A program made the translations under genes and the position numbers. This document shows positions 541 through 11,091 of a stretch of 11,091 bases of DNA, piece by piece. Source of the stretch: a virus; UHGV virus genome UHGV-0030812. The stretch is one strand, 5' to 3'. The number at the start of each line of letters is the position of its first letter. Within the stretch, counting starts at the first letter, position 1. The notes under the pieces were generated by a model, which worked only from the letters and a program-made list of their open reading frames with translations, was not told where the DNA came from and did no database searches.

Positions 541-543
541 TCG

Positions 544-825
544 TTAACGCCGTAACCGCTCCGGCTTCTTCCAGTGGTACGTAATTTTCTCCGTTTCCCG
601 ATACAGTGCCACGCGGCGATTGTAGGCCAGCATTTCAAGAACGCGGATCCGTATGTTGCGCATATCCACATCATTAAGCTGGATACCATCACGGCGCATC
701 ACCTCAGCAACAACACGCGCATAATTTTCGGCTGTCACGCTGTCCGGCTGCGTGGCCTGTTCGTCAGTCTGCTGGCTGATTCCACCAGCACGGCGGATTA
801 ATCCCAGTATTTCGGCTTCTGTCAT
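544..825 (-). CDS. Hypothetical protein, 93 aa
   Basis: ORF with ATG at 825-823 and TAA at 546-544, preceded by a weak GGGTG Shine-Dalgarno. No family recognised. Lies just outside cos copy 1. Confidence 0.55.
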   Translation of the reverse strand: MTEAEILGLIRRAGGISQQTDEQATQPDSVTAENYARVVAEVMRRDGIQLNDVDMRNIRIRVLEMLAYNRRVALYRETEKITYHWKKPERLRR

Positions 826-857
826 TGTGCACCCATCGTTCTGATTGTCTGGTGTCG

Positions 858-925
858 TCGGGTCCTTCCTGGAATTATGGCCCGTTACGGGGCGGCGACC
901 TCGCGGTTTTTCGCTATTTATGAGC
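858..925 (+). other. Lambda-type cos site, copy 1 (cosQ-like GGGTCCTTCCTGG, cosN GTTACGGGGCGGCGACCTCGCGG, then TTTTTCGCTATTTATGA), plus-strand orientation
   Basis: Contains the 12-nt lambda cohesive-end sequence GGGCGGCGACCT (890-901) within the symmetric cosN. Roughly 85-90% identical to the reverse complement of 1621-1690. Lambda match is recalled from memory of the lambda genome ends. Confidence 0.7.
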
Positions 926-938
926 TTTTTTAGAGGGA

Positions 939-1088
939 GGTTGTTGTTTAATTGTTTGTCATATCCATTTGATAACTAAGTAAAAATAAAGAGCAATACA
1001 ACAACCTGATAGTGTTTTTTTGATGCTAAAAATAAAAAAATGCTAATTGAATCAAATAGTTTTAAAAAAATACGTGGTTGTTGTATTG
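939..1088. repeat. AT-rich segment carrying three copies of GGTTGTTGT(A/T)TTG (939-954 plus, 994-1006 minus, 1076-1088 plus); cosB-like terminase/accessory-protein binding region adjacent to cos copy 1
   Basis: Repeats read directly; A-tracts throughout (930-1110). The arrangement (repeats in both orientations next to cosN) resembles the R-site layout of lambda cosB. Confidence 0.45.
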
Positions 1089-1118
1089 CGTATTTGATGG
1101 CGTAACAGAAAGTGATTT

Positions 1119-1559
1119 TTAACTTTGCTGTTCTGTAACGACTGATTGTTCCATGCTGGCACGGCGAACGCTTACGGCATGACGCCACCCAGCCAGAAAG
1201 CCAGCCATTTTATTTCGTGCCTTGCTCACATCTTCCGGTGAATAGCCGTAAATCTGCAAACCTTCATCAAATCGATGTTCTGTTTCTTCACTGGAGTACT
1301 CGTCACGCTCAGATGAAAGCAGCCTGGCAAACATAATTTTTTCCAGCGCACTGGTTTCTACGTGATATCTGATGGTCTCAAGACGGCTTTTACCTGAAGA
1401 CCAAAGCAATGTATGCCCGATGTGATAACCGCCAGACTTTCCGCGATCCGCATTAAGATACGGCATCCCCTGTTTGGTCCATGCGCGAATAGTGGTTCTG
1501 TTAACCTTGAAATGTTCAGCTATTTCCTGCTGACTTACAAAACAAGCTTTATCAATCAT
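1119..1559 (-). CDS. Small terminase subunit homologue, lambda Nu1-like (N-terminal winged-HTH); possibly a packaging-redirection factor
   Basis: 146 aa; N-terminus VSQQEIAEHFKVNRTTIRAWTKQGMPYL parallels lambda Nu1 KKQLADIFGASIRTIQNWQEQGMPVL. ATG at 1559-1557 sits about 60 nt downstream of cos copy 2, as Nu1 does relative to cos in lambda. The C-terminal half is not obviously Nu1-like. Confidence 0.65.
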   Translation of the reverse strand: MIDKACFVSQQEIAEHFKVNRTTIRAWTKQGMPYLNADRGKSGGYHIGHTLLWSSGKSRLETIRYHVETSALEKIMFARLLSSERDEYSSEETEHRFDEGLQIYGYSPEDVSKARNKMAGFLAGWRHAVSVRRASMEQSVVTEQQS

Positions 1560-1620
1560 AATGTTACCTTAACTGCATGGTTAAATATTAATCAAGTGGT
1601 GGTGGTGTCATCTTCACGGA

Positions 1621-1690
1621 AAAACGTCATAAATAGCGAAAACCCGCGAGGTCGCCGCCCCGTAACGGGTCCATATGCCGGAAAGGACCC
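1621..1690 (-). other. Lambda-type cos site, copy 2 (minus-strand orientation), directly upstream of the Nu1-like gene
   Basis: Reverse complement reads GGGTCCTTTCCGG...GTTACGGGGCGGCGACCTCGCGGGTTTTCGCTATTTATGA, which matches the remembered lambda right-end/left-end junction almost base for base apart from about 10 nt between cosQ and cosN. Confidence 0.8.
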
Positions 1691-1692
1691 AT

Positions 1693-1716
1693 AAAAAAAA
1701 GCCGGATTTCTCCGGC
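1693..1716 (-). terminator. Rho-independent terminator ending the capsid operon
   Basis: On the minus strand, GCCGGAgaaaUCCGGC (perfect 6-bp GC-rich stem) is followed by U8; lies 7 nt downstream of the 137-aa gene stop. Confidence 0.8.
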
Positions 1717-1722
1717 CTTGTC

Positions 1723-2136
1723 TCAGATGGTTTTCAGTATGCGATCGATGTCGCCGTCATCGCCCTGGTTTCTGCCATCGTATGCCATGCCAGCTGATAC
1801 GGCTTGCGGGCTGTGCATGTCCATAAAGTTTTCAAAGGCTGCGGTAAGTTCCGGCGCAACCTTCGGACGTTCCTGCTCTATGGTCATGCTAAGGATGCTT
1901 TTAGCCGTACCAACATCGATACAAGGCACGTTTGCCATTGCACGTAACAGCGGCTGATAGTCGCCAGATTCATCAAGCGCCATAATCGCATCAGCGCGCG
2001 GCTTGTCCTGCTCTTCCAGTTTGTTGAGTTGATATACGGCCTCGTAGGTTGATAAACCTCTGTCAGCCATTGCCCGCGCTTCTGCTTTAAATTTACTCGC
2101 CAGCGGTAGCGCCATGATGCTTTCATTCGTTGCCAT
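1723..2136 (-). CDS. Hypothetical protein, 137 aa, last gene of the capsid operon
   Basis: ATG at 2136-2134 with AGGGGA Shine-Dalgarno, 12 bp after the gpD-like stop. No family recognised. Confidence 0.6.
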   Translation of the reverse strand: MATNESIMALPLASKFKAEARAMADRGLSTYEAVYQLNKLEEQDKPRADAIMALDESGDYQPLLRAMANVPCIDVGTAKSILSMTIEQERPKVAPELTAAFENFMDMHSPQAVSAGMAYDGRNQGDDGDIDRILKTI

Positions 2137-2148
2137 CGTTTCCCCTGC

Positions 2149-2484
2149 TTATCGCGCCAGCGGCTGAACGGATACGCCAGAACCCGCAAAGGCGGCGCAT
2201 TTTTTCGCGTCAGTGTCGGCGCTCTCAGGCCAGTTTACGGCGGCGATATTAAATATCCCCGTCTTGTAACACTGTGCTGATTTCTGCTTTGACGTGTCCA
2301 CGGGGTACGAGGTCAGATAAACAGCCTTGCCAGATTCCTGACCATCCCACGGCTTAAACTCGCCATTGTCCGCCAGCATCAGCGGGGTAAATTCCTGAAT
2401 AACGCCAGCATCAGCGGCAAAATGTACCAGCGTCGTGGCGACCTGCTGACTGCCTGCAAATAACTCAATGTATGGAGTGTCCAT
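2149..2484 (-). CDS. Head decoration protein, lambda gpD-like
   Basis: 111 aa; FTPLMLADNGEFKPWDG and YKTGIFNIAAVNWPESADTDAKKCAAFAGSGVSV align with lambda gpD MTPLMLD...VAWDG and [40 protein letters not shown] Shine-Dalgarno precedes the ATG. Confidence 0.8.
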   Translation of the reverse strand: MDTPYIELFAGSQQVATTLVHFAADAGVIQEFTPLMLADNGEFKPWDGQESGKAVYLTSYPVDTSKQKSAQCYKTGIFNIAAVNWPESADTDAKKCAAFAGSGVSVQPLAR

Positions 2485-2495
2485 AGAATCCCCCG

Positions 2496-3551
2496 TTAAC
2501 CAATTTTGACGGTAACAAATTTGCGAATATCTGCCGGTACCGGCTGCGGTGCACTGTGTGTCTGCACGTACTCAATCGCCGGATCTCCGTCCTCAATCCA
2601 GTTTTTCGGGTAGTACATGTTTTGCGTTGCCCCCGTTCTTACTGCGTCCTGATCCATAATCGCACCATAGGCCACCAGCCCTTTATTGTTGGTGTTGCCC
2701 AGGACAAGCAAATCAGGCTCAAGGAAATATTTTTCTGTGCCGTCGCTGTCGGCGTATTTGCCGGAATAGACGATAAGGGCAATATCGCCCAGATAGCCTT
2801 TAAAGCTCACCACTTCGCCCAAGTTTTTACATGCCAGCTCTGCGGCGGACTCTGAACCACGGGAAAGATCGTACAGCTCACGGAATTTTTTAAAGCTGCG
2901 TAACGTTCGCCATACCTCAGCGCCCATAATCATGACGTTGGCGGGGCAACCTGCCTGATCGGCGTATAGTTCGATATCATAGATTGGATCGTGGATTTCT
3001 TTGTCCTGCTCTGACCATTTTTTACCGTCGGCCTGCTCTATGATGTTTTTTTCCGGTATCTTCCAGTCGATTTCATAGCGCTCTATGCCTTCGCCCTCAA
3101 TGATGTTTTTTCCGGTCGTTACCGCATTTACCGCCAGCCATTCCACGCGCGCTTTTATGGCGTTTATCTGGCGGCGCATATTGCCAGTAATCAGGCGCAT
3201 ACGGCGATAGGTAGGGTCGTTAAGCTGTGCCGGATCTTCTCCAGCCATGCGCATGATGGTTTTCGTTGGATCGATTTCGTGCTTTGGCTTCATGTAGCCA
3301 GGTTTGATTGTGCTGGTTTCGTACCCTTTATCGCGCTGAACCTGGCTACCCACCATAGGCGAACAAAACGCCGACATGGTGACTTCTTCAATGTCCAGGG
3401 TATCCAGCATGATGTTTTGCGTGCTGAATGTCGCCACGTTCGGGAAAAACAGCGTGGTAAACAGCGGACTGAATTTAAATTCCGCAATATCCCCGCGATT
3501 CAGGTACGCAAAAAGCTGGTTAGTGTTAAGTGCCATTGCTTTTACTGTCAT
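2496..3551 (-). CDS. Major capsid protein, lambda gpE family
   Basis: 351 aa, colinear with lambda gpE (341 aa) along its whole length: FKFSPLFTTLFFP / FKFDPLFLRLFF, PGYMKPKHEIDP / PGYVKPKHEVNP, EDPAQLNDPTYRRMRLI / EDPQNLADPAYRRRRII, VLGNT, YPKNW. Start ATG overlaps the upstream stop as TAATG. Confidence 0.9.
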   Translation of the reverse strand: MTVKAMALNTNQLFAYLNRGDIAEFKFSPLFTTLFFPNVATFSTQNIMLDTLDIEEVTMSAFCSPMVGSQVQRDKGYETSTIKPGYMKPKHEIDPTKTIMRMAGEDPAQLNDPTYRRMRLITGNMRRQINAIKARVEWLAVNAVTTGKNIIEGEGIERYEIDWKIPEKNIIEQADGKKWSEQDKEIHDPIYDIELYADQAGCPANVMIMGAEVWRTLRSFKKFRELYDLSRGSESAAELACKNLGEVVSFKGYLGDIALIVYSGKYADSDGTEKYFLEPDLLVLGNTNNKGLVAYGAIMDQDAVRTGATQNMYYPKNWIEDGDPAIEYVQTHSAPQPVPADIRKFVTVKIG

Positions 3552-5158: not shown

Positions 5159-6913
5159 TTATAAAAACGCGTCGCACTCGTCTGTTGTTATTGCGTTAGT
5201 CTGCGTTACTCCCTTAACTTTCCGCGTAATATATTCATGTCCGTAAACTTTCGCGGCTGGCTTCATAGCCTTGCCAAAGTCATTTACGTTTAGCGGTTTG
5301 CTCCTGCCTGCGTACGCCATAAACGCCAGATAGACGCGGTAAAGACTGTTTCTGGTCGTGTACTTCACTGAATCGCCACCGCCGCCCATCATCAGGCCGC
5401 GTGCTTCCTCCAGAAAATTCAGGAACTGGCAAAACTCAATAACCGGATCCGTCTGTTGCTTTATTGCCAGAGCTTCATCACCGTCACGCTGTTCCAGTAG
5501 TAAAGCCCTCGCCTTCTCAGGGTCGGTAAAGTTCGCCAGCAATCGGCGGATAATGACAGGGATTTCAGCCGCGATCTTTTCCGGTAGCTCCCTGTCTTTT
5601 TCGGCCTCACTGACGATATTGTCGAAACGGAAAATCACGCGACGACGTGCCACACCTCCGGCCCGTTCGGTGAATATCATCGGGTTATTGTTGGTCGCCA
5701 GCACCACCGCCCTGATTACAGCCGTGAAACGCTTTTCGTATTTCGGGTTAATTTCCACGGGGTCACCGCCCGTGATTTTCTTGATGCCCGTTCCTTCGCC
5801 TGTATATTTCGGCTGGTCAGCCAGGACGATAAGACGACTCCCGACAACCTGCGCACGTCCACCAGCATCATCAAGCGATGTCATTTCAGCGCTTACCGTG
5901 TTCTGTTTCCCTGCCAGAAGGCTGGCTATGTGTGTGAATGTACTTTTACCGCTCCCGCCGTCTCCGGTGGCCTCAATAAACATCTGCCAGTCGTACCGGT
6001 TCGCCATAATCATGTACAGCGCGGCACATATACGCATCATCTTGCGCGGGTCTTTTCCGGCTGCGTGCTCAAGCCATTTATGAAAGTTTGGCGCGTTATC
6101 GCGGATGTTCTCCCCTGGTGCTGGTGGCGTGTACTCAATGCCGTTGTGCGTGGTGATCCAGTTCTCCGGCGTGTGCGGGGAAAATTCCCCCGTTTTCAGG
6201 TCAAGCGCACCATTGGCGAACGGCAACAAATCGCCGGACGGCTCGCCCATTGGTTCGGCAATAACTTTTAACGCTTCCACGGCGTTATTGATTACGCGCT
6301 TGCTGAAAGTGGCCCTGTGCTCTGAATAGATCGCCACCATTTCGCGGCTAAGTTCCATTGTGCTGACCGGACACCATACCCCGCCGCGCCATACGTGAAC
6401 GATTTCACTTTCAGGATGTACGCAAACGCCATCAAAGCGATCGGCAAGCAGCTGCGCGCGCTCACTGTCCGCCATCTGCGAAAGTTGCGCCTTTTGCTTT
6501 ACCGGAAGCTCAATGACCAGACCATCAGAAAGATTCTGGCGCTCACGGGCCAGATATTCGCGCCAGTTCTCCACCTTCTGACCGTGCATACCATCAGGGT
6601 AAAAATTTGCATCCTGTACGCCTGCCGCCGCCAGCTTCTGACCAATCGCCTTTATCATTACTGGCGCAAGATATCCGGCCCTGAATATGCGCACGGATTT
6701 TCTGCCTTCCGGCACAATTTGCAGCTTATCCAGTTCGGATAACTGCTGCTCCCCAAGCCACACAGGAGGCTCATTATCTCCGGCCATACGCGCGTCATGT
6801 TCCTGCCATTGTTTTGCGTGTGACCAGGCATCACTACCCGCAAAAATAATGACTTCTGTTTCTTTGTGTTTTATGCCGCGTGACTGCTGTTTTACGTTCG
6901 GTGCCAGTTTCAT
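5159..6913 (-). CDS. Replication initiator: primase fused to a P4-alpha / D5-type SF3 helicase domain (Pri-Rep)
   Basis: 584 aa; Walker A GDGGSGKST and downstream LIVLAD-type Walker B in the C-terminal half. Size and layout typical of P4-family/PICI primase-helicases. ATG overlaps the upstream stop (ATGA). Confidence 0.85.
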   Translation of the reverse strand: MKLAPNVKQQSRGIKHKETEVIIFAGSDAWSHAKQWQEHDARMAGDNEPPVWLGEQQLSELDKLQIVPEGRKSVRIFRAGYLAPVMIKAIGQKLAAAGVQDANFYPDGMHGQKVENWREYLARERQNLSDGLVIELPVKQKAQLSQMADSERAQLLADRFDGVCVHPESEIVHVWRGGVWCPVSTMELSREMVAIYSEHRATFSKRVINNAVEALKVIAEPMGEPSGDLLPFANGALDLKTGEFSPHTPENWITTHNGIEYTPPAPGENIRDNAPNFHKWLEHAAGKDPRKMMRICAALYMIMANRYDWQMFIEATGDGGSGKSTFTHIASLLAGKQNTVSAEMTSLDDAGGRAQVVGSRLIVLADQPKYTGEGTGIKKITGGDPVEINPKYEKRFTAVIRAVVLATNNNPMIFTERAGGVARRRVIFRFDNIVSEAEKDRELPEKIAAEIPVIIRRLLANFTDPEKARALLLEQRDGDEALAIKQQTDPVIEFCQFLNFLEEARGLMMGGGGDSVKYTTRNSLYRVYLAFMAYAGRSKPLNVNDFGKAMKPAAKVYGHEYITRKVKGVTQTNAITTDECDAFL

Positions 6914-9056: not shown

Positions 9057-9245
9057 TTAATGAACTGCCTTGCAGCTATCCTTCCAGGCCAGAACCTCGG
9101 ATAAAGACCAGCCAACGGAACGACCGCTAAGTTTACGACGTGATGGGAATTGTCCGGCCTTTTCCAGGCGGTAGCGGCATGAGCGGCTAAGGCCTGTTAG
9201 CTTTTCGCATTCTTTTTCACGTATAAACCGATCAGTGCTTAACAC
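9057..9245 (-). CDS. alpA: AlpA-family transcriptional regulator (phage/satellite excisionase-like HTH)
   Basis: 62 aa, GTG start with AAGGGGG Shine-Dalgarno. LTGLSRSCRYRLEKAGQFPSRRKLSGRSVGWSLSEVLAW is the canonical AlpA pattern. Immediately upstream of int on the same strand. Confidence 0.85.
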   Translation of the reverse strand: MLSTDRFIREKECEKLTGLSRSCRYRLEKAGQFPSRRKLSGRSVGWSLSEVLAWKDSCKAVH

Positions 9246-9609: not shown

Positions 9610-10839
9610 TTATTTTCTTCTGGCTACTGGTAGCGTGGTTACGTTTTCATGTGTTCCCGCCAGTATCCCTAACCGCTCCGTCCACATATCCAGCGCATTG
9701 CGTTTAGCATCCAGATAACGGGAATGATTATAAACTCGCTGCATTCCTGGCATCTGGTGGCCTGTAAGCTGCTCCACGACATGCGGATCAACGCCTAAAT
9801 CGTTCAGCATGGTTGTAAAGGTGCGCCGGATGTCATGCAGTGACCAGTGAGGATGATTAAGCCTCCTGTGCGCTAATCTTCCATACTGCGATACGCTGGC
9901 CTCCTGTTTCACTTCCCCCAGCAATAAGCCCGTGTGCCTGTTCTGCTCCACCAGCTGCGTGACGAACGGCAGGATCGCTTCCGGTATGGGCCGGAATATT
10001 GCGACCTTCGTTTTGCTGTGCTCCTTCGGAACGGTCCATAGCATTTCCGTAAAATCCCACTCCCCGATCTCCGATAACCTCAGTTCTACCGTTCTGGCTC
10101 CGAAGACAATCAGGAGGCGGATTAACGCGACGTAGTAAGGGGAGAATATTTTTTTGTCCAGTGCCTGCAATAATTCGCCAAGTTCTTTGTTACTTAAGAC
10201 ACGTTCGCTTATATCCGGTTTTTTCCCAACGTCCGCCACGTTCAGATCGTCCAGAACGTTGCTGATTGCATAGCGCCGCCTACGGCAGAACTTAAGCGCC
10301 TGTTTGCACGCCTGTAGCACGAATCCGGCAGTAACAGGCGTTCGCTTTGCCACCTGGTCAAAACAGGCCAGCCAGTGCCGTAGCTCGCATTTATCCAGCG
10401 GCATAGCACCAATCTGCTGTATTACGTGATTATTAAGTCGCCTTTTCAGGGCGATATAATCCACGCGGTTTTCCTTTACGTAATACTCAAGCCAGTAGGT
10501 GAGCGCATCGCCAACCGTTACGGGCTTTAACGCTTCCTGTACGGTGTAATTCATCTCATGACGTGGATTTTTCCCCTCAGCCAGCCATGTGCGACACTGT
10601 GCGGCTTTTTCCCTGGCTGCTTTCAGGCTCAGATCAGGATAACTTCCCAGCTTAATGCGTTCGGGTCGTGTCTCCCTTCCCGTTCCGGCCCTGTATGTGA
10701 AATACCAGGTCAATTTCCCTGATGTTAAATATTTCACGCTCAGGTTTCCGCCATCACTATAAAACGTGTTTTTCTCCGCTGGCTTACCATGAAGTTTCCT
10801 TAGCAAGGTATCGCTCAGTTTGTTCATTGCTCTGCTCAC
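9610..10839 (-). CDS. int: Tyrosine recombinase, P4-type integrase
   Basis: 409 aa. Catalytic signature: R in ARTVELR, HDIRRTF (H-x-x-R), GHQMPGMQRVYNHSRY (H and Y nucleophile); N-terminal arm-binding-type domain. Start may be GTG at 10839 (AGAGGGGG upstream) or ATG at 10827. Confidence 0.9.
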   Translation of the reverse strand: MSRAMNKLSDTLLRKLHGKPAEKNTFYSDGGNLSVKYLTSGKLTWYFTYRAGTGRETRPERIKLGSYPDLSLKAAREKAAQCRTWLAEGKNPRHEMNYTVQEALKPVTVGDALTYWLEYYVKENRVDYIALKRRLNNHVIQQIGAMPLDKCELRHWLACFDQVAKRTPVTAGFVLQACKQALKFCRRRRYAISNVLDDLNVADVGKKPDISERVLSNKELGELLQALDKKIFSPYYVALIRLLIVFGARTVELRLSEIGEWDFTEMLWTVPKEHSKTKVAIFRPIPEAILPFVTQLVEQNRHTGLLLGEVKQEASVSQYGRLAHRRLNHPHWSLHDIRRTFTTMLNDLGVDPHVVEQLTGHQMPGMQRVYNHSRYLDAKRNALDMWTERLGILAGTHENVTTLPVARRK

Positions 10840-10864
10840 GTTTTACCCCCTCTTTACGAAAAAG

Positions 10865-10887
10865 TGACTACACCAGTGACTACACCG
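10865..10887 (+). repeat. Right copy of the 23-bp direct repeat TGACTACACCAGTGACTACACCG, about 25 bp upstream of the int start
   Basis: Identical to 152-174; followed by GAAACAAG / GGAACAAG motifs as at the left copy. Confidence 0.7.
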
Positions 10888-11091
10888 ATCGTTGCACAAA
10901 GGGCTACAACGTGAAACAAGCTGGAACAAGGAAAATCACAAATCTGTTGATAATCAAAAACATAATGCACAGCCTGAAACATTATGAAACAGCAAAAAAC
11001 ACTAAATGATAAAATGCTGTTATTCTTAACCCGCTGGTGCAACACATGGTCCGCTGGCGAGTGCCGCGTGTACTGGCGGTGTCGATTTTGA

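Follow-up and report, generated by a model that had tools for sequence, protein, structure and literature searches.

Inverted lambda-type cos sites with different cosB regions flank rpp in a phage satellite of the EcCICFT073 family

Results

Two inverted cos sites bracket an rpp gene

The stretch of DNA analysed here, 11,091 nucleotides (nt) of UHGV virus genome UHGV-0030812 (hereafter the window), belongs to the EcCICFT073 family of Escherichia coli phage satellites and is a phage-inducible chromosomal island (PICI) of the cos type. Two lambda-type cos sites in inverted orientation bracket its rpp gene. The site upstream of rpp (copy 2) is the published cos1 of EcCICFT073, the Rpp-TerS-dependent site that is essential for transfer, and the site downstream of rpp (copy 1) occupies the position of the published EcCICFT073 cos2. 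We lean towards the reading that copy 1, standing in this cos2 slot of an EcCICFT073-family PICI, would provide a second, Rpp-independent packaging route for another class of helper phage. A wider proposal, to which we give rather less than even chances, is that the second inverted cos may be a modular helper-range cassette, a complete native cos acquired from lambdoid phages with a class of TerS DNA-binding domain that the Rpp or PICI TerS of the island does not mimic, so that such islands would hold two orthogonal packaging routes.

The two sites lie in the longest inverted repeat of the window, whose 71-nt arms (860–930 and 1620–1690) are 86% complementary and stand 689 nt apart. The lambda cohesive-end sequence GGGCGGCGACCT occurs exactly twice in the window, at 890–901 on the plus strand and at 1660–1649 on the minus strand; 0.06 occurrences would be expected by chance, and two or more matches were obtained in 0 of 200 shuffles. 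Thus, the repeat behind the original prediction of two inverted, convergent lambda-type cos sites is real and non-random, and the gene that they bracket is a winged helix-turn-helix (HTH) gene. The identical cosN core that it described was also confirmed, but its length of 24 bp was too short, as the longest stretch identical between copies 1 and 2 measured 26 nt (CCCGTTACGGGGCGGCGACCTCGCGG). When compared with an authentic lambda junction (L120), copy 2 was identical from -7 to +33 and also in cosQ (GGGTCCTTTCCGG), in keeping with the likeness to lambda that had been noted for it. Its cosQ GGGTCCTTTCC (1680–1690), its exact cohesive-end match at the published cos1 (1649–1660) and its segment beside cosN from +13 to +34 (1627–1648), all on the minus strand, showed the lambda sequence. 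Copy 1 differed from lambda by a single mismatch at +18 and by a cosQ one T shorter. On the plus strand it comprises a cosQ-like element GGGTCCTTCC (860–869) that aligns with lambda cosQ, the exact cohesive-end match at the position of the published cos2 (890–901) and, beside cosN, the lambda-like segment CGCGGTTTTTCGCTATTTATGA (902–923), which includes the I2 region and the mismatch. In both copies cosQ is located ~30 nt upstream of cosN, as in lambda.

The gene between the sites (1119–1559, minus strand) had been taken for a Nu1-like terminase gene. Its 146-amino-acid product instead matched RppC (PDB 6HLK) with E=5.5e-31 over residues 2–125 and was 98% identical to RppA of EcCICFT073, indicating that the gene is an RppA allele of rpp. 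The match to lambda TerS was weak (E=0.059), and a Pfam scan of the protein gave no Phage_Nu1 match and just sub-threshold generic HTH matches, whereas Phage_Nu1 was matched by all phage and PICI TerS proteins scanned. A Nu1/TerS identity was therefore rejected. The residues R21, T22, R25, K29, K41 and F121, which are listed as DNA-contact and dimer residues (PMC6739421), are all present in the Rpp of the window and are invariant in an alignment of Rpp proteins (A1). Given the 98% identity to RppA, this Rpp is predicted to bind helper TerS, block phage packaging and promote packaging from cos1.

Copy 2 corresponds to cos1 of EcCICFT073

Window 1123–1769 was 98.9% identical to CFT073, and copy 2 showed one mismatch to the published cos1 in the first 100 nt. 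Murialdo and Feiss placed a probable Rpp-binding site, R3-PICI, at bp 48–65 of cos1 and the rpp ATG at bp 102 (PMC9026076). In copy 2 the proposed R3-PICI (AGATGACACCACCACCAC) is found on the minus strand at 1613–1596, that is, at bp 48–65, in agreement with the published site in position and sequence; bp 55–63 read ACCACCACC, and the rpp ATG lies at +102. The element is identical to that of CFT073 cos1 apart from a G-to-A change at +50 (window 1611). The A at this position (T on the plus strand) stands against a G in EcCICFT073, in the island copy of E. coli strain 300709 and in all RppA loci surveyed in IMG/VR (GAAGATGAC versus GAAGGTGAC), and it falls in the 5' part of the proposed R3-PICI, the suggested determinant of Rpp specificity (PMC9026076). 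The core ACCACCACC (window 1598–1606) is of the type of the reverse complement of the R3-like GGTGGTGGTGG of TerS-type islands (L002, ~12170–12180) and also resembles the type A element ACAACAACC; the orientation of the motif relative to cosN is opposite.

The paired sites had been called a non-standard arrangement. They are the cos1 and cos2 of EcCICFT073, which were tested in two studies (PMC6092414, PMC6739421) and are kept in relatives. Cleavage and packaging have been shown genetically for both EcCICFT073 sites (PMC6092414, PMC6739421). Both are functional, transfer by lambda and phi80 requires cos1, deletion of cos2 increases lambda-mediated transfer, and deletion of both abolishes transfer (PMC6092414). 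Either site gives some plasmid transfer by lambda and phi80, while recognition by the RppA-TerS complex is limited to the cosB of cos1 and RppA boosts transfer of the cos1 plasmid only (PMC6092414, PMC6739421). The word "inverted" is absent from these papers, which leave the orientation unstated in their text, and a phage cosB, which could not be found, is reported for neither site (PMC6092414, PMC6739421); the second cos is nowhere mentioned in the paper on R3-PICI (PMC9026076). The same inverted cos pair surrounds rppA of EcCICFT073, as located in the CFT073 chromosome (L006).

Copy 1 carries a complete phage-type cosB

Window 543–931 was 93.8% identical to the cos2 side of CFT073, whereas window 932–1122 had no counterpart in the cosB of EcCICFT073 cos2. 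The repeats that had been noticed after copy 1 are real, since GGTTGTTGT occurs three times, in forward, inverted and forward orientation. The first (939–947, plus strand) is an R3-like element at +50 of copy 1, the position of lambda R3, which lies at bp 50–65 (PMC9026076). It is followed by an R2-like element at +106 to +117 (995–1006, minus strand), in which the motif is inverted and the plus strand reads AATACAACAACC, and by an R1-like element GGTTGTTGTATTGC at +187 (1076–1089, plus strand). Together they form a complete phage-type cosB, termed type A, which extends from 902 to 1110 on the plus strand and stops a few bases short of the rpp stop codon.

This cosB stretch showed ~78% identity over 92% of its length to a region in ~250 complete E. 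coli genomes. Three of the matching places were examined (L007, L008 and L010), and each was a lambdoid prophage in which the region lies directly upstream of terS, terL, head-tail joining and portal genes. The prophage layout consists of GGTTGTTGT at ~+50, an inverted element at ~+110, GGTTGTTGT again at ~+187 and the terS ATG at ~+229, with the R1-like element ~30–40 nt ahead of the terS start in all three. In an alignment of islands and prophages over the type A cosB (A2), all three R-like elements and two stretches resembling sites for integration host factor were invariant, while the spacers had diverged to ~78% identity. Because the match lies upstream of terS-terL in prophages and the elements are invariant, we regard copy 1 as a whole phage cos of type A. 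The original prediction had assigned an element-specific cosB to copy 1; the roles turned out to be reversed, as it is copy 2 that has the R3-PICI, and the cosB of copy 1 is shared with lambdoid prophages. Among deposited phage genomes, copy 1 was matched in cosQ and cosN only and its cosB was unmatched, so that the matching phages are known here as prophages only. The R sequence of lambda itself was in neither copy.

An origin of copy 1 from the own cos of TerS-encoding sister islands was considered, as window 859–1009, when inverted, showed 83% identity to their terS-proximal cos. This candidate was rejected: the match covers the first 108 nt only and the elements there read GGTGGTGG/ACACCAACC, whereas the prophage match covers 92% of 902–1122 and shares the exact GGTTGTTGT elements.

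The cos2 slot in related islands holds different phage cosB types

Related islands were surveyed among E. coli-like viral contigs (IMG/VR) for the presence of both copies. The inverted pair was kept in 20 of 21 informative RppA loci, where the distances from the rpp ATG were -101 for one site and +649/+669 for the other; nine of these 20 loci had a type A cassette and 11 a type C cassette. In complete genomes the counts were approximate and their sums inexact, with 97 genomes carrying rpp against ~35 with type A, ~63 with type C and 15 that were RppB-like. A cross-species search of genome contigs based on the Rpp alignment returned nothing, its peptide patterns being too narrow. TerS-encoding sister islands had both sites in 30 cases (16 of type B and 14 of type D), and the second site was traceless in 14 others, degenerate in five and truncated inside cosN in two. 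In the two IMG/VR loci of the TerS type with a truncated site, the second cos is cut exactly inside the cohesive end, with GGGCGGCG joined to the 3' end of terS, as would be expected from a deletion starting at the terminase cut.

In every island examined, the cos2 slot appears to hold an identifiable phage cosB. EcCICFT073 has a type C cassette (ATGTCCGGTT) that was 86–89% identical over 135 nt to prophages L011 and L012, and the type D cassette of L003 was 80% identical over 152 nt to prophage L013; the likeness of the type B cassette of L002 to CFT073 prophage phi4 was judged by eye and is unquantified. In RppB-like islands (L009 and L034–L036) the pair is likewise inverted but is built on another cosN core, with the two sites at 2945–3000 and 3690–3760 in L009. 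Therefore, the design recurs in a second cosN background. The alternative cosN family consists of GAAACACCGGGGGT, ~6 variable nt and ACGCGCAAAAACGCGC, placed between a lambda-like cosQ and a TTTATGA segment. Its core was also found in two lambdoid prophages, L121, in which both cosB and TerS are of type A, and L122, which has a canonical Nu1 TerS. L121 adjoins the gene for the heat-labile enterotoxin IIA B chain.

The flanks of the pair were 92–97% identical to those of TerS-type sister islands, and the interior between the cosN sites was wholly replaced, which accords with an earlier suggestion of a lambda-derived cassette bounded by inverted repeats. Two loci showed further rearrangement. 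L039:2290–2960 is a recombinant whose cos1 slot contains a phage type C cosB together with a gene fusion, in which the opening codons of a phage terS continue in frame into the C-terminal half of rpp. The fusion thus lacks the HTH domain, and as the cos2 slot is of type A, both sites are of phage type. In L033, the same cohesive-end substitution GGGCGTCGACCT occurs in both inverted copies (L033:2400 and L033:3170), which suggests that one arm underwent gene conversion by the other or that the two adapted jointly to a helper that has this end.

Cassette types are associated with TerS classes

The TerS proteins of types B and D and of lambda gave full canonical Nu1 matches (E=1e-81 to 1e-86). 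Their DNA-binding domain reads RTIxxWQxQGxP and is the domain that Rpp resembles. In contrast, the TerS proteins of types A and C matched Nu1 in the C-terminal half only and had other N-terminal domains, and the PICI TerS had a type A-like domain. A comparison of a type A TerS (L008:3217–3723) with a type C TerS (L011:2684–3193) showed nearly identical C-terminal halves and unrelated N-terminal DNA-binding domains, a domain swap that parallels the differing R elements of their cosB regions. Cassettes were of type A or C in 20 of 20 RppA loci and of type B or D in 30 of 30 two-site TerS-type loci. The second site of an island thus appears to fit the class of helper that, by expectation, lies outside the reach of the island's own specificity factor.

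Copy 1 may provide a second packaging route

The following mechanism is proposed. Once an Rpp-TerS heterodimer binds R3-PICI (bp 48–65), helper TerL would cut the lambda-type cosN of copy 2, and packaging from there would run leftward through rpp; these steps have been demonstrated for the near-identical EcCICFT073 site and are predicted here from its identity with copy 2. Copy 1 would be a complete native cos, with cosQ, cosN and R3/R2/R1, copied from lambdoid phages with a non-canonical N-terminal DNA-binding domain in TerS. An unmodified terminase of a type A phage could then recognise it in the manner of a cosmid, with packaging towards the right. Two effects of the inverted orientation would be expected. 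Recombination between the copies would invert rpp without deleting it, and a motor coming from one site would not find the polarity from cosQ to cosN at the other, so that it would not terminate there. For termination in lambda, the travelling motor must reach cosQ before cosN. Four island units (~44 kb) would fill a lambda-size head, in agreement with the reported phage-sized packaged DNA of EcCICFT073 (PMC6092414).

The cos2 site is costly with non-cognate helpers, yet it is almost always kept beside rpp, and a compensating benefit with other helpers would therefore be expected. If the cassette reading is true, cos2 seemed useless or harmful in the published tests because these used lambda and phi80 only. 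Several points weigh against a second packaging route. Packaging of the island through copy 1 by a type A phage is something that we infer from the sequence, and EcCICFT073 cos2 was weak and mildly harmful with lambda and phi80 as helpers (PMC6092414). In TerS-type loci the second site is often missing or degenerate (~22 loci), which makes it dispensable in that lineage. Because the surveyed loci are closely related, few independent events underlie the 20/20 and 30/30 association, namely two cassettes per class and the replicate on the alternative cosN. Moreover, all classes of TerS share a conserved central helix, through which a type A or type C TerS might still pair with Rpp.

Among other explanations, it is unlikely, but the least so of the three considered, that the second cos marks a scar of recombination or the edge of a cassette, left as a by-product of the capture and exchange of a module (cosB with rpp or terS) and without a packaging role. 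It is likewise unlikely that the exchange behind such a by-product was driven by crossovers in the ~70-nt cosQ-cosN sequence common to lambda-like cos sites. The replaced interior between flanks that are 92–97% identical to TerS-type islands would be accounted for in this way, as would the interchange of types A and C beside a near-identical rppA, the L039 recombinant with its phage cosB in slot 1 and truncated rpp, and the loss or degeneration of the second site in ~22 TerS-type islands; the shared cosN substitution in L033 is consistent with gene conversion. However, a scar would not be expected to keep three R elements invariant despite ~22% divergence of the spacers, nor a complete cosB to within a few bases of the rpp stop codon. 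The retention of the site in 20 of 21 RppA loci despite the cost of cos2 with lambda, the covariation of cosN type at both sites in RppB islands and the measurable transfer via EcCICFT073 cos2 also weigh against a scar.

A role of copy 1 as a decoy, which was put forward in the original prediction, is less probable again. Here its cosB, carried on a multicopy replicating island, would titrate the native terminase of type A phages like a sponge and would serve interference over transfer. Copy 1 does have the full phage R3/R2/R1 set, and PICIs are known to interfere with helper packaging (PMC6092414, PMC6739421). However, an intact site with cosQ, cosN and cosB would be cut and packaged, beyond mere binding, and interference and transfer would therefore be coupled; in EcCICFT073 interference maps to Rpp instead of the cos sites (PMC6092414, PMC6739421). 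Packaging in either direction by a single helper, with the same terminase at both sites, is very improbable: although both EcCICFT073 sites permit some plasmid transfer by lambda and phi80 and cosQ and cosN are almost alike in copies 1 and 2, this early proposal is a misfit with two unrelated cosB regions that match different specificity determinants, with stimulation of cos1 only by RppA, with the rise in lambda transfer on cos2 deletion and with the geometry of a double cut, after which the large fragment would carry two ends that are identical and non-complementary.

Relation to known systems

The two-cos design is already known for EcCICFT073-family PICIs, and the window is a further member of this characterised system. 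It shares with EcCICFT073 the family, the gene order, an Rpp of 98% identity, a near-identical cos1 and an inverted second cos downstream of rpp. The difference lies in the cosB of the second site, which is of type C (ATGTCCGGTT) in EcCICFT073 and of the non-homologous type A (GGTTGTTGT) in window 932–1122. With respect to the R3-PICI model (PMC9026076), copy 2 contains the proposed single R3 equivalent, differing by the G-to-A change at bp 50.

Compared with lambda cos, copy 1 has the same layout, in which the R3-like element stands at +50 and the R2-like element, in inverted orientation, at +110, with the R1-like element further on in forward orientation. The R sequence is different, being of the CGTTTCC type in lambda and GGTTGTTGT in copy 1, and no terS follows copy 1, whose cosB abuts the 3' end of the convergent rpp. 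As in the lambda/21 specificity pairs, the cosB type here tracks the DNA-binding domain of TerS.

SaPIbov5 and phage P4 are satellites that bear the cos of their helper. Copy 1 is likewise a cos of the helper class, including the specificity region, which would permit packaging by a native helper terminase; unlike these satellites, the island in the window adds a second site of redirected specificity (Rpp/cos1), inverted and ~760 bp away. In HE-PICI 11capE, a 258-bp stretch at the cos position was 90% identical to the cos region of its helper prophage 50icd (PMC10111431). This is the same phenomenon as that of the cos2-slot cassettes, but it is a single reported case, unlinked to a two-site design or to a TerS domain class (PMC10111431).

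What the present data appear to add is that the cos2 slot holds a swappable, complete phage cos of a type that complements the island's own specificity factor. This cassette pattern offers a testable answer to the published open question on cos2. Should cos2 serve as a route independent of Rpp for a second helper class, these virulence-associated satellites would have a wider helper range than that seen with lambda and phi80, this range could be read from sequence, and exchange of a ~200-bp cassette could retarget engineered PICI delivery vehicles.

Other features of the island

The island is ~10.9 kb long and integrated in tqsA, the two halves of which stand ~10.9 kb apart; E. coli strain 300709 has a 99.8% identical copy, also located in tqsA. 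All island genes are on the minus strand. They include an integrase gene (int, 9610–10839), alpA (9057–9245), genes for a DUF4222 protein and a single-stranded DNA-binding protein (SSB), and a D5-type primase gene (primase-replicase, 5159–6913). The combination of int, alpA, primase-replicase and tqsA insertion, without a full morphogenesis or lysis module, is that of a PICI, and helper-induced excision, replication and high-frequency transfer have been demonstrated for EcCICFT073 (PMC6092414). Genes for a lambda E-like major capsid protein (2496–3551) and a lambda D-like decoration protein (2149–2484) are present at 2149–3551 in this island, which lacks portal, protease and TerL genes.

The outer flank of cos1 is formed by the gene for a conserved 137-amino-acid protein (1723–2136; phrog_1999, PHROG E=1.7e-64), which ends in a terminator-like hairpin with a 9-bp stem followed by a T run (1698–1719, minus strand), directly before the cosQ of cos1. 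The outer flank of the cos2 slot is formed by the gene for a conserved 93-amino-acid protein (544–825; phrog_1561, PHROG E=1.3e-55), which adjoins the packaging module in the window, in CFT073 and in L002–L004. Promoter-like matches around the packaging module were at chance level, and no Rfam family was matched in the window at gathering thresholds.

Just inside both island ends, at 148–175 and 10861–10888, is a direct repeat containing GTGACTACACC twice, and these repeats may be arm-type binding sites of the integrase. A short sequence, TGCTGTTAT, is common to ~70–78 and 11016–11024 and may be the att core within tqsA.

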